A program made the translations under genes and the position numbers. Under the pieces are notes generated by a model. It saw nothing but the letters and a program-made list of their open reading frames with translations, had not been told where the DNA came from and ran no database searches. This document shows, in pieces, positions 14,763 to 26,348 of a DNA stretch of 64,000 bases (position 1 is the stretch's first letter; every line of letters starts with the position of its first letter). The stretch lies in assembly GCF_054482595.1 (NCBI RefSeq), contig NZ_CM137008.1; one strand, written 5' to 3'.

Positions 14763-14860
14763 GTATAAAAAGCTAATACCAGGCTGCCTGTCATATCGAT
14801 TTCATGCAGGATAAGTAGAACTCCGTCTAATCTAGACGGAGTTCTATTGTATTGATGGCT
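14763..14860 (+). mobile_element. IS66-family left-end/leader fragment containing a perfect 13 bp-stem palindrome (about 14817..14845)
   Basis: Sequence from about 14763 resembles the left terminus and tnpA leader of the IS66 copy at 26006-26088 (gtaNacgtaaag... then tagaactccgtctaatctagacggagttcta followed by ATG); begins about 17 bp after the acnB stop. Coordinates approximate. Confidence 0.4.
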
Positions 14861-14952
14861 TTGGTAGAAGCGTAAGTGTACAGCGAGAGCTGTATTGACA
14901 GGAATGCGTTATTCAGTTGGCAGTGTATTGCGCAGGGGGAGCCGTTCGCTGA

Positions 14953-15770
14953 CGTAAGCGGCTCGTCAGAACCGTATTGATATTTACTGAGCGGTCAGTT
15001 CAACTTTCCAGGGCAACAGATCACGTACCCGGTTTGCCGGCCAGTCCTGGATATGTTCAATGACGTAACGCAGCCATTTTCTGGCTCCTCATTGTTCAGA
15101 CGGCATGTGCCGATCAGCGAGTACAACACCGCCGCATGTTCGCCACCGTTGTCGGAACCCACGAAGAGCCAGTTTTTCCGGCCTACGGCCACTCCCCGTA
15201 AGGCGTTCTCTGCGATGTTGTTGTCGATTTCCACCCAGCCATTGCTGCAGTACACATTCAGGCCATCCCACTGTTTCAGCAGGTATGCGAACGCTTTTGC
15301 CGTATCCGAGTGACGCGACAGTGTTTTCATCTGAGTCTGTATCCAGTCATACAGTGACTGCATCAGTGGCGCAGCTCTGGCTTTTCTTGCTGCCAGACGC
15401 TGTTCTGCTGAACATCCCCGGACTTCTGCCTCGGTGGCATACAGTTCACCGATACGCTGCAGGGCTTCCGTGGTGATGTCGGTTGGCACTCTTACATGCA
15501 CATCGTGGATTCTTCTCCGGGAATGAGCCATACACGCGGCTTCCGTTACTCTGCCGGATTCGTATAACGCCTAAGCATCGGCCTGAAGCACACCACAAAG
15601 ACTGGCCTTCAGGCTGTACACGCAGCCAAAGCGTTTATCGTTGAACACCACATTTTTCTGGCTGATGTCCCATTCTTCACGCAGCATAGCAATCAGTTGT
15701 GGTGTGCAGGTAAGCAGCAAGCGAAAAGGCAGTTCAAAACTGGTGACGTAATCCACATTCAGCAGGGCAA
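14953..15770 (-). pseudogene. IS66-family transposase TnpC, C-terminal remnant
   Basis: ORFs 14995..15531 and 15571..15756 match the TnpC C-terminal half ([30 protein letters not shown] motifs); N-terminal half absent or frameshifted; GTAAGCG-type terminus near 14953. Confidence 0.7.
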
Positions 15771-15997
15771 TACGCAGCAGTTCTTCTGGCCCTGCCTCTG
15801 TCTGCCGACACTCCTCCAGAACATCCTGCTACTGCCGACGAAGATATGGAGATTCATTCAATTCTGTAAAACCGTATTTATCCGCCAGATAGTCAATTCG
15901 TGTACGCATACTGAAAAGAATTCCGTATAAAAATTCAGCAGACAAAACTTTATCAGCCCATAAGAATCAACGGAAGAGCCAGTAACGTACCAGATTA

Positions 15998-16510
15998 TCA
16001 CCTGGCTATTGTTGCCATAACGGGTAACATAAGGGACTGAACAGTTGTCTTTAGCACAACGAACTGATCTAATGTACCTGAACGGTCAACCTGAAAACAG
16101 CTTTCCAACCGACATTGTCCGCCAGCGTTTATCCCCGACCAGGTCTGTTGCAGTAAATCCACCACTTGCGAACATTCTTCATCAACTGTGGCACTGACCC
16201 GCAGATGGCAAATGCTCGCCTGGCTGAGCAGCAACAGGCATCGTATTGTTGCTTCTCCATGTTGTTCCAGCAACCAGCGTAATACCACCGGCGGTGCTGG
16301 ACTGGCAGTGTGATTACGCTCAGTAATATGTTCTTGCACCTGTCGGTAAAAGGCAGTACAGAATGCATGAATCTGTTGCCCGTTGATGTTTCCTTCTGCC
16401 GAATAGAGCGTGAAGTGGACTGCCAGCAGACGCGGCCAGTGGTCCACCGCCTGCTGAACAAAACGCCAGATATCTCCCGGCTCTGAAAGTAACGCTTCGG
16501 TTATTTGCAC
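15998..16510 (-). CDS. hypothetical protein (170 aa), possibly a gene fragment
   Basis: ORF only; no family recognised; sits between an IS66 remnant and a truncated garD. Confidence 0.3.
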   Translation of the reverse strand: MQITEALLSEPGDIWRFVQQAVDHWPRLLAVHFTLYSAEGNINGQQIHAFCTAFYRQVQEHITERNHTASPAPPVVLRWLLEQHGEATIRCLLLLSQASICHLRVSATVDEECSQVVDLLQQTWSGINAGGQCRLESCFQVDRSGTLDQFVVLKTTVQSLMLPVMATIAR

Positions 16511-16672
16511 GGAATACTACTCCTTCAGACTCTGTTAAGTTTTGTTTGTTAAACCGGTGCAGACCTGCAGGAAAGCACGCCAGCACCGGCACTGTACGAT
16601 ATAAACATCCGGTACCGGGGATACGAATGGAATGACGAATACGCCAGAAAAGGGATAACAACCTTCCTCATA

Positions 16673-24109: not shown

Positions 24110-24440
24110 CAAGCGCCACCCGGCAAAACCGGCAGCAGGGGCTTATTCCCCCTGCTTTTCCAGCGCATACTTATACAACGCATTCTTCTTCACTCCGTGG
24201 ATTTCTGCCGCCAACGCCGCCGCTTGCTTCAACGGCAGCTCAGCCTACAACAGCGCCAGCGTACGCAGCGCATTGGCGGGCAGTTCGTCATCCTGGGCTT
24301 TATGGCCTTCAATAATCAGCACCATCTCGCCTTTGCGAGGGTTTTTATCTTCTTTGATCCACGCCAGCAGTTCGCCGACCGACGTGCCGTGGATGGTTCC
24401 CAGGCGGGTGTTCATCACATAACGGTATAGGGCATCATTC
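24110..24440 (-). pseudogene. rsmI: 3' fragment of a 16S rRNA 2'-O-methyltransferase gene with an internal stop
   Basis: Minus-strand translation gives [83 protein letters not shown], matching the RsmI C-terminus with an in-frame TAG; the 5' part is replaced by IS66 sequence. Confidence 0.7.
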
Positions 24441-25191
24441 AGCGGAGCCATTAACTGGCAGCACGCGTCAACCCAGTTGGAGAGTAATGCACGGCTCAGC
24501 TCGACGCCCTAACGGGCAAAGATTTCACTCTGACGGTACAGTGGCAGATGTTCGCAGTATTTCCCGTTAACACACGGGCAAGCAAGCCGGGACCTGCGAT
24601 ACCACGCTCTATCGGACGGGACGGCGCCGGTGCTTCAACAATACAGTCACATTTTGTACAGGCTTTTTTTACCCGAACAGTGCGGATCACTTTCAGGGCA
24701 CTGCTCACCAGTTCCAGCTGCTCAGCACTGACTTCCCCCAGATAATCCAGCTCACTGCCACACTCCTGGCAACAACTTTCTTCAGGTTCCAGGCGGTGTA
24801 TTTCACGGGGAAGATGTGCCGGTAACGGACGACGATGACGTGACTGTCGCAACTGGCGGGGAACCTGCGGGTCATCCTCTCGCCCACTGTAACGATCGCT
24901 GTCCTGTTCTCGTTGTTTCAGTTGGGACTCAGCCTGTTCAACCTCACGCTGCAGTTTTTCAGAACGGGTACCGAACAGCATCCGGCGCAGTTTTTCTATC
25001 TGAGCCCGAAGATGTTCTATTTCCCGTTCCTCCTCTTCGATCTTTTCTTCGGCGCGGGCCAGCGCAGAGCGCAGGAAGGCCTCCGTCTCTTCAACCAGAC
25101 TCAGTTGCTGGTCTTTCTGACGGAGGGCTTCAGCCTGCTCAGAGAGCAACCTTTCCAGTTCTGCAATGCGAATGAGGTATTTCTGACTCAT
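24441..25191 (-). pseudogene. IS66 family transposase TnpC, frameshifted and 3'-truncated
   Basis: N-terminal coiled-coil and zinc-finger region intact (MSQKYLIRIAELERLLSEQ...); after GPGLLARVLT the frame shifts, and the sequence ends in a fusion with the rsmI fragment. Confidence 0.8.
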
Positions 25192-25221
25192 GACCGTTTT
25201 TATAATGCGGTCAGGAGTTTT

Positions 25222-25572
25222 TTACAACATTGTCAGTGAGTTAAGGCGGGATGTTTTTGGCTGACGCCAGTCCAGCTTATCGAGGAGCATTGCCAGTTGC
25301 GAGCGGGTAATGGATACCTTGCCGTCACGTACCGCAGGCCAGATAAACTGGCCTTCCTCCAGGTGTTTGGTGAACTGGCACAGACCATCAGAATCGGCCC
25401 AGAGTATTTTAACAGTGTCACACCGTCGGCCACGAAAGATAAACAGGTGACCTGAGAAGGGGTTCTCATCCAGCACATGTTGTACCTGTTCTCCCAGACC
25501 GTTGAAGGATTTACGCATATCGGTAACGCCGGCAACGAGCCAGATGCGGGTACCTGATGGGCGTGAGATCAT
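25222..25572 (-). CDS. IS66 family TnpB (Orf2)
   Basis: 116 aa, MISRPSGTRIWLVAGVTDMRKSFNGL...; overlaps the tnpA stop. Confidence 0.85.
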   Translation of the reverse strand: MISRPSGTRIWLVAGVTDMRKSFNGLGEQVQHVLDENPFSGHLFIFRGRRCDTVKILWADSDGLCQFTKHLEEGQFIWPAVRDGKVSITRSQLAMLLDKLDWRQPKTSRLNSLTML

Positions 25573-26006
25573 CTTCCCCTCCCGGTCAGTTCACGGATCA
25601 ACACAGTGAGCAGCTCTGGTGAAGGATTTTCCAGTGTCATTTTACCGTAATGGAATTCCACATGGCAGGAAGCCGCACAAGCAACTGATAATGCCTCCGG
25701 AGCAGGAGCATCTGTAGCACAGAGCGGGGTGTCGGTAAGTTCCACTGGAACCAGAGTCGGAGAGGCCGGAAAAGATTGTGGTACTGTAGGGCCTACAATA
25801 GTTGGAGGTATTCTACGAGAAATACGTATTTCTCTTTGCCAGAGGCGTAGCCATTTAAAAATCAGGTTGTTATCAACGCCATGTTCCCGGGCCAGTTGTG
25901 CAACATTGGCATTTGGTTTCGAAGCCAGTTCAACCATATGAAGCTTAAATTCATTAGAAAATATCCGGCGGGTCCCAGTGCGCCAGTCTGTAGATTTATC
26001 CATCAA
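25569..26006 (-). CDS. IS66 family accessory protein TnpA (Orf1)
   Basis: 145 aa with the N-terminal FSNEFKLHMVELA...AQLAREHGV HTH-like motif. Confidence 0.85.
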   Translation of the reverse strand: MMDKSTDWRTGTRRIFSNEFKLHMVELASKPNANVAQLAREHGVDNNLIFKWLRLWQREIRISRRIPPTIVGPTVPQSFPASPTLVPVELTDTPLCATDAPAPEALSVACAASCHVEFHYGKMTLENPSPELLTVLIRELTGRGR

Positions 26007-26348
26007 TAGAACTCCGTCTAATTTAGAAGGAGCTCTAATTTAGTCTGCAAGGATCAGGTGTTACAGACGGCACTGGCTTTACGTTTACAAACAGTACGTG
26101 ATGAGTATGAGGCTTTTTTATCTGTATATAATCCCTCATTCTGTAAATTGGGATAGGGCAATTTCACAATCATCCTCCTCCCATATCACCAGTATATACT
26201 GAGCCGTGTTTATCTATTTGGTTAAAATTCGCTACAATCCCATTTTCTCTTTTGGGAATATAACAGTCTCCATTGTCTCTTTATTGGTTAATGGAGACTG
26301 TGTTTAAAGGAAGAAATCAGGAGTGATTGACAGGGTACCTGTCAGCAA

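Follow-up and report, generated by a model that had tools for sequence, protein, structure and literature searches.

What is a perfect palindrome doing just behind acnB, and why does a close relative of it stand in front of a transposase gene elsewhere in the same DNA? The window considered here (the whole 64,000-nucleotide (nt) stretch of contig NZ_CM137008.1) is an E. coli genomic island and is 100% identical, over the tested stretch, to that of O157:H16 Santai (record NZ_CP007592). A first-pass annotation, made from the letters alone, had assigned both palindromes to leaders of an insertion sequence (IS) of the IS66 family. Both loci are ordinary IS debris in the island. The palindrome would be the version, in the subgroup around ISEc47, of an IS66-wide inverted repeat that lies over the ribosome-binding site (RBS) of tnpA; we think it somewhat probable, taking the two points jointly, that the copies have the identities given below and that the repeat acts as an mRNA hairpin hiding that site.

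Two IS66 left ends and the joint with acnB

The features on which the argument turns are the following.

12149-14746, plus strand: second-copy acnB, last gene of the cit-acnB module (an open reading frame (ORF) annotated as acnB in NZ_CP007592)
14747-14769, plus strand: leftover native acnB 3' flank, which aligns to the K-12 sequence downstream of acnB as GGTTTAAGAAGTCAG----TGTGCTGCGTATAAA
14770-14857, plus strand: truncated solo left end of an ISEc47-like IS66 element (copy 1), from the profile match and pairwise alignments
14816-14846, plus strand: palindrome copy 1, with GGAG (14838-14841) in the 3' arm and its complement CTCC in the 5' arm
24404-26003, minus strand: tnpA, tnpB and truncated tnpC of a defective element, from Pfam and pseudogene annotation
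25990-26088, minus strand: left end of an ISEc47-like element, with left inverted repeat (terminus 26088), leader and tnpA start
26007-26037, minus strand: palindrome copy 2, TAGAACTCCGTCTAATTTAGAAGGAGCTCTA on the plus strand and TAGAGCTCCTTCTAAATTAGACGGAGTTCTA on the sense strand

Copy 2, the imperfect relative that the first pass had placed between an IS66 left terminus and the tnpA start codon, does lie there, in a full-length match to ISEc47 left ends. Using a profile made from 12 independent left ends from other genomes and searched over the 64-kb window, nhmmer matched 26088-25990 on the minus strand (88 bits, E=1.5e-26; profile positions 1-99), and this left end is 92-94% identical to hundreds of E. 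coli ISEc47 copies. The ISEc47 left end of E. coli WP7-S17-ESBL-04 (L002) is matched throughout (repeat, leader, palindrome and ATG) at about 93-94%, with tnpA-tnpB-tnpC following; the window element departs from it in its terminus, GTAAACGTAAAGCC at 26088, which has GTAAACG where ISEc47 has GTAAGCG (one mismatch), and in its truncated tnpC. The genes, all on the minus strand, are tnpA (25569-26003), whose 144 amino acid (aa) product carries the Pfam domain HTH_Tnp_1; tnpB (25222-25572; Pfam TnpB_IS66, PF05717), whose start overlaps the tnpA stop; and the truncated tnpC (about 24404-25191), which has the LZ_Tnp_IS66 and zf-IS66 N-terminus (Pfam) within 24496-25191 and is given as a pseudogene in the public annotation (NZ_CP007592). 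These matches establish copy 2 as the genuine left-end leader of a minus-strand ISEc47-like IS66 element that is defective. Its palindrome has two arm mismatches, which amount to one G.U and one U.C in the stem; the GGAG (26015-26012) lies within the 3' arm, 8 nt ahead of the ATG (26003), and the palindrome ends 3 nt ahead of the same ATG. RNA folding of the leaders, a check that the first pass had proposed, gave -16.1 kcal/mol (z=-3.7) for the 54-nt leader of copy 2.

In ISEc47-type leaders a 10-bp stretch of the left repeat (GCCGUCUGUA) is predicted to form a second pairing, with its complement in tnpA codons 4-8 (UACAGACUGGC); the sites are 26067-26076 with 25982-25992 (minus strand) in the window and 3521-3530 with about 3598-3608 in L002. 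By eye this long-range pairing is not kept in the L009 or L013 leaders, so it is probably due to chance and was dropped as a real structure.

The palindrome of copy 1 (TAGAACTCCGTCTAATCTAGACGGAGTTCTA, 14816-14846, plus strand) is perfect. Its arms (14816-14829 and 14833-14846) are 14 nt each, where a stem of 13 bp had been counted before, and are 100% complementary around a 3-nt loop; the 54-nt leader folds as RNA at -24.9 kcal/mol (z=-6.4 against shuffles). The two copies are alike at 83-86% over 37-41 nt. Here the same profile matched 14779-14849 on the plus strand (43 bits, E=1.7e-12; profile positions 14-85), against 23 bits on the minus strand, where the score comes from the palindrome alone; the IS66 left-end match begins at 14770-14779, from profile position 10-14, on the plus strand only. 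The stretch 14770-14857 consists of the inner left inverted repeat, the leader, the palindrome, a Shine-Dalgarno sequence and a vestigial ATG (14855-14857), in agreement with the flanking pattern and vestigial ATG described earlier; after the palindrome come TTG, a 5-nt TATTG duplication, the ATG at 14855, five codons and no more.

Compared with ISEc47, copy 1 shares the leader architecture and the invariant 3' arm TAGACGGAGTTCTATTG..ATGG and is identical at 43 of 53 nt, but it is without the terminal 9-13 nt of the left inverted repeat (GTAAGCGTA..), the GTAAGCG terminus being absent, and transposition genes are lacking; the perfect palindrome also sets it apart from ISEc47, where the stem contains one G.U and one U.C. 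As judged from its sequence, copy 1 is a remnant and not an element, having the homology but neither the terminus nor the genes. Its closest pairwise relative is L089 (64 of 79 nt, over 14780-14856), with only 43 of 53 nt for copy 2; L089 belongs to the same subgroup, has a solo tnpA, and encodes a TnpA 71% identical to that of the window. No intact parent of copy 1 was found by plasmid BLAST or by viral and metagenome pattern scans, which gave related variants only, L089 being the closest. These comparisons show copy 1 to be a left end that was truncated and left stranded, from another member of the ISEc47 subgroup than copy 2. Over the 64-kb window the profile found copies 1 and 2 and a weaker third left end at 32418. 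The two palindrome copies are not chance.

The acnB of the island matches native E. coli acnB at about 96%, and acnB is found at two places in Santai. It is an Escherichia-type paralogue with 23 nt of native flank and no native terminator: native homology ends at 14754 by megablast, or at 14769 if one 4-nt gap is allowed, and the K-12 terminator hairpin (AATGCCCGG..CCGGGCATTTTTTT) lies past the breakpoint and is absent. That copy 1 might itself be native acnB downstream sequence is ruled out by the end of K-12 homology at 14769; when 14763-14860 was compared with the native downstream region, as had been suggested, it gave no alignment from about 14770 onward. IS-like sequence starts about 23-32 nt past the acnB stop (14746), not 17 bp as first stated, and the palindrome begins 70 nt past it. 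These alignments put the fusion between the acnB 3' flank and copy 1 at about 14770, so that copy 1 marks where the cit-acnB module gives way to IS debris. Of the two origins first offered for this joint, IS66 insertion or recombination, a clean insertion does not fit, because the outer 9-13 nt of the inverted repeat are missing; what stands is a recombination or deletion joint at the right edge of the module. The identity of about 96% and the retained 23 nt of native flank imply that acnB was probably captured from the chromosomal acnB-yacL region, and not imported from a distant genus.

The inverted repeat in the ISEc47-like subgroup and the wider IS66 family

Leaders of the subgroup were collected from TnpA relatives and loci in one genome per species, from assemblies, and from viral and metagenome pattern scans, giving about 20 distinct ISEc47-like variants in all, metagenomes included; they come from Pectobacterium, Trabulsiella, Buttiauxella, Acerihabitans, Lelliottia, Citrobacter, Klebsiella, Enterobacter and E. 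coli. None of the ISEc47-like leaders recovered lacks the palindrome TAGA(G/A)CTCC.TCTAA-loop-TTAGA.GGAG(C/T)TCTA, which always ends 3-4 nt before the ATG or GTG; this bears out the earlier proposal that it is a conserved leader element of this IS66 subtype. Across this set TnpA identity goes down to 49-71%, and there is free variation in the 10 nt that immediately precede the palindrome. Arm position 5 is occupied by A-U, G-C or G.U, and copy 1 is among the few variants in which every position is paired. The right end of ISEc47 has no such palindrome, and those of ISEc22 and ISCro1 are likewise without it.

Carried beyond the subgroup, the search for the palindrome in IS66 relatives, also proposed in the first pass, succeeded in kind and not in letter: the exact sequence is absent from ISEc22, ISCro1 and the elements called here 'group B', which have an analogous inverted repeat instead. 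The device of the wider family is an inverted repeat built on a ..TCC..GGA.. core, whose flanks are complementary to each other and specific to the lineage. It has been seen in the 'group B' enterobacterial elements, ISCro1, the third remnant of the window, Xenorhabdus, Paraburkholderia, Methylocystaceae and Rhodobacteraceae, with arms such as GGTGTCCAC/GTGGACACC, GCGTCCACCAA/TTGGAGGACGC, GATGGAGTCC/GGACTCTATC and TAGATGTCC/GGACATCTA; the GTGGAC motif of ISEc22 is a direct repeat, not an inverted one. The sampled lineages reach 30-40% TnpA identity and belong to the alpha-, beta- and gamma-proteobacteria.

When 22 lineages were anchored on the CC/GG core, 91.4% of the arm cells were paired, compared with 71.0+/-2.2% when the 3' partners were shuffled (0/500) and 31-42% when the arms were slid; 7 of the 9 pairs showed double changes (40 cells, against 15+/-2.7 in shuffles), and the covariation score was 0.557 against 0.204 in shuffles (0/500), though all these statistics are optimistic, since the alignment was anchored by hand, the CC/GG core is paired by construction and the lineages are related. 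Among 21 lineages the GGA stands 4-11 nt, mostly 8-9, ahead of the start codon, and the core spacing from CC to GG is 12-16 nt, mostly 12-13, whatever pairs inside. The hairpin is the dominant predicted RNA structure in nine 54-nt lineage leaders (z from -2.3 to -6.4).

The annotated tnpA start of ISCro1 (L230 5845-5847) falls inside the 5' arm of its hairpin. Comparison with the Xenorhabdus relatives suggests that the real start is the ATG 9 nt past GGAC (..GGACACTATCGTATGAAA..), in which case the annotated 225-aa TnpA may be 10 residues too long.

A proposed hairpin over the tnpA ribosome-binding site and its alternatives

The GGAG inside the 3' arm, 8 nt before the ATG, and the pairing kept family-wide both speak for an action on the tnpA mRNA. 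The anti-Shine-Dalgarno (C)UCC of the 5' arm would pair with (G)GGA(G) in the 3' arm, which stands some 8-9 nt ahead of the start codon, and the resulting hairpin of 9-14 bp, at -13 to -25 kcal/mol, would hide the RBS. Translation of TnpA would be kept low; that of the overlapping tnpB would probably be lowered too, and through tnpB possibly that of tnpC, with the repression expected to be strongest on transcripts reading in from outside the element. The hairpin of copy 1 would control nothing of its IS any longer.

Fold-back inhibition in IS10 and IS50 follows a similar RBS-occluding logic. For IS200 it has been shown experimentally that a stem-loop in the 5' untranslated region sequesters the tnpA Shine-Dalgarno sequence and blocks 30S binding (Ellis, Trussler & Haniford 2015, PMC4513863). 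Like all three, the IS66 leaders have a left-end inverted repeat whose 3' arm holds the RBS of the first gene and which is predicted to form a stable hairpin, and by analogy the expected effect would be low translation and insulation from impinging transcription. Unlike them, IS66 is a different family, with a DDE transposase and a three-gene operon, and in its leaders no antisense RNA or Hfq site was identified and no terminator hairpin lies ahead. Rfam gave no match at gathering score, FsrA (18.8 bits against 80) and ClpQY_promoter (16.1 against 42) being sub-threshold chance hits, and no account of a leader hairpin in IS66 turned up in a full-text literature search, whose coverage stops short of key subscription papers on the family. 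By its likeness to the leader structures of other IS families, the hairpin is most likely ordinary mobile-element biology.

Repression of tnpA translation at the RNA level is the simplest reading, with RNA rather than DNA as the putative active form. Several observations weigh against it, in addition to the optimism of the family-wide statistics. G.U and A.C/C.A cells are equally frequent (10 and 10 family-wide, about 10 and 8 in the subgroup), so there is no RNA-strand signature; a candidate signature at arm position 5, G.U in six variants and A.C in none, was given up when the bias disappeared on counting all positions and lineages. Arm position 10, usually mismatched in the subgroup, is so in most of the active relatives, and 'group B' retains a C.A mismatch. 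Within the subgroup the columns vary little, covariation is no better than in shuffles and only one pair covaries, and the arm sequences are conserved beyond what pairing needs. The GGAC of most non-ISEc47 lineages is a weak Shine-Dalgarno sequence, and a scan for sigma-70-like promoters called none in either leader, where weak TTGCAG-17-TCTAAA-like matches are seen by eye. Because of four features, namely the lack of a G.U bias, the conserved mismatches, the over-conserved outer arms and the near-constant core spacing, the strength given to RNA-level repression is held to about evenly balanced.

The same four observations fit a palindromic TnpA operator equally well. The palindrome would then be a DNA site on which a dimer of the helix-turn-helix (HTH) protein TnpA (or TnpC) occupies two half-sites, for autorepression or to mark the left end for the transpososome; we regard this as rather unlikely, while setting it well above the explanations of the next paragraph. 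TnpA has the HTH_Tnp_1 domain and no assigned role, the dyad has well conserved outer half-sites (TAGAGCTC / GAGCTCTA) and a more variable centre, its ..GTCC..GGAC.. core is kept over very distant lineages, and symmetric covariation would be expected of co-evolving repressor-operator pairs too. InsA of IS1 binds the left inverted repeat and thereby represses its own promoter, and IS66 is like it in having a palindromic site beside the first gene and a small HTH protein encoded right downstream. The IS66 site is not, however, the terminal inverted repeat itself; its arms are almost wholly different between lineages, whereas the HTH region of TnpA is fairly conserved (many invariant columns, residues 7-66); the steady 8-9 nt from GGA to the start codon are directly explained by a Shine-Dalgarno role; and the ISEc22 motif is direct. 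A more specific form, to which slightly less credence is given, takes the inverted repeat (..GTCC-N12-13-GGAC.., here ..CTCC-N13-GGAG..), present in every IS66 lineage sampled, as the DNA target of a TnpA dimer that would repress tnpABC and, during transposition, tell the left end from the right, the RNA hairpin being a by-product or second layer. A weaker addition to this form is that other IS66 members might be drawn to insert at the site; the stacked end fragments described below would then be accounted for. An mRNA hairpin and a TnpA operator could coexist.

For copy 1 alone, it is improbable that its 14-16 bp hairpin has been co-opted as the transcript 3' end, or terminator, and stabiliser of the captured acnB. 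The loss of the native terminator beyond the breakpoint would leave room for such a use, copy 1 being the first strong hairpin downstream of acnB and fully paired as few variants are, and it resembles a Rho-independent terminator in having a GC-containing perfect stem right after acnB and then several U, the sequence past the stem (TTGTATTG) being moderately U-rich. Unlike a terminator, the hairpin precedes a gene in all intact relatives and does not follow one. A terminator scan (stem plus U-tract) made no call at either copy; in copy 1 only 4 of the next 8 bases are T once the stem is extended. Perfect or near-perfect palindromes are also found in bona fide IS leaders (L008, L005), so that no new selection is needed, and the island copies, all at least 99% identical, give no evolutionary signal. 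Still less probable is a subterminal transposase-binding or DNA-hairpin site belonging to the chemistry of transposition. In all elements the palindrome is confined to the first 85 bp or so from the left terminus, and other IS66 ends are frequently found to interrupt IS66 end fragments at the palindrome or close to it, but its position follows the tnpA start codon and not the terminus; for cleavage or synapsis one would expect a site at each end, and a transposase site so used is unlikely because the right ends lack the palindrome. A chance palindrome without function has in its favour that short hairpins are common in the window, and nothing else; preservation in many genera despite diverging flanks, covariation over the sampled IS66 lineages and folds with z to -6.4 effectively refute it.

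Stacked IS66 remnants and the edge of the cit-acnB module

Beyond the features given above, the window holds these further pieces of IS66 elements.

14858-14872, no strand assigned: unassigned 15-nt stretch between the copy 1 scrap and the next IS end; similarity to the tnpA of relatives stops after ATGG
14873-14953, minus strand: ISEc22-like right-end remnant, with right repeat GTAAGTGTACAGCG.. and the last tnpC codons, about 80% identical to the ISEc22 right end (L003 3501-3582)
14954-15570, minus strand: ISCro1-like right end with the C-terminal part of tnpC and right repeat GTAAGCGGCTCGTCAG.., 95-100% identical to ISCro1 copies
30104-30433, plus strand: another IS66 tnpA (109 aa) of a different subgroup, followed by tnpB and tnpC pseudogenes (Santai annotation)
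32418-32510, plus strand: third IS66 left-end remnant (nhmmer E=0.002), with its own hairpin AGGTGCCCAC / GTGGACACCT at 32471-32501 and an ATG at 32505

Copy 1 is cut off about 10-25 nt past its start codon by the ISEc22-like and ISCro1-like right-end remnants. An ORF in the latter (14995-15531, minus strand) matches DDE_Tnp_IS66 profile positions 153-283 and is annotated as a tnpC pseudogene; the right repeat was compared with L230. This tnpC fragment adjoins copy 1 from the opposite strand, behind two right repeats, and is part of other IS66 elements. That copy 1 might be the right end of this minus-strand tnpC remnant is ruled out by the intervening right repeats at 14873 (ISEc22-like) and 14954 (ISCro1-like), and further by the lack of a palindrome in the ISEc47, ISEc22 and ISCro1 right ends.

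Similar stacks were met with elsewhere. As the ISCro1-like right end (14954-15570) abuts the ISEc22-like right-end scrap (14873-14953) in the window, so a full ISEc22 abuts an ISEc47 right-end scrap in L003 (3441-3500/3501); in L004 (1501-1552) the left repeat of another IS66 member interrupts an ISEc47-like left end precisely where the palindrome begins on its 5' side, and L006 (1501-1553) is a further case of IS66 end fragments stacked end to end. IS66 members may prefer to insert into or beside each other's ends.

The third left end has a fold of z=-2.4 and about 55 tnpA codons until the frame decays (32418-32670, plus strand). In the 110 nt upstream of the tnpA at 30104-30433, no obvious inverted repeat or GTAAGCG terminus was seen. 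Other perfect or near-perfect short hairpins of the window lie at 40809-40847, 43085-43113, 17854-17884 and 63053-63090 (arms of 17, 13, 12 and 17 nt, respectively), and all four are probably terminators.

For this window the acnB/IS66 joint fixes the right boundary of the cit-acnB module, and the captured acnB, joined as it is to a heap of IS66 end fragments, points to rearrangements mediated by IS66 as the means by which the module was put together or trimmed. Enterobacterial islands, plasmids and prophages are rich in IS66 elements. For their regulation the covarying inverted repeat over the tnpA RBS is a concrete candidate control element, be it as RNA hairpin or as TnpA operator, and is usable as an annotation signature for IS66 left ends that have lost their genes.

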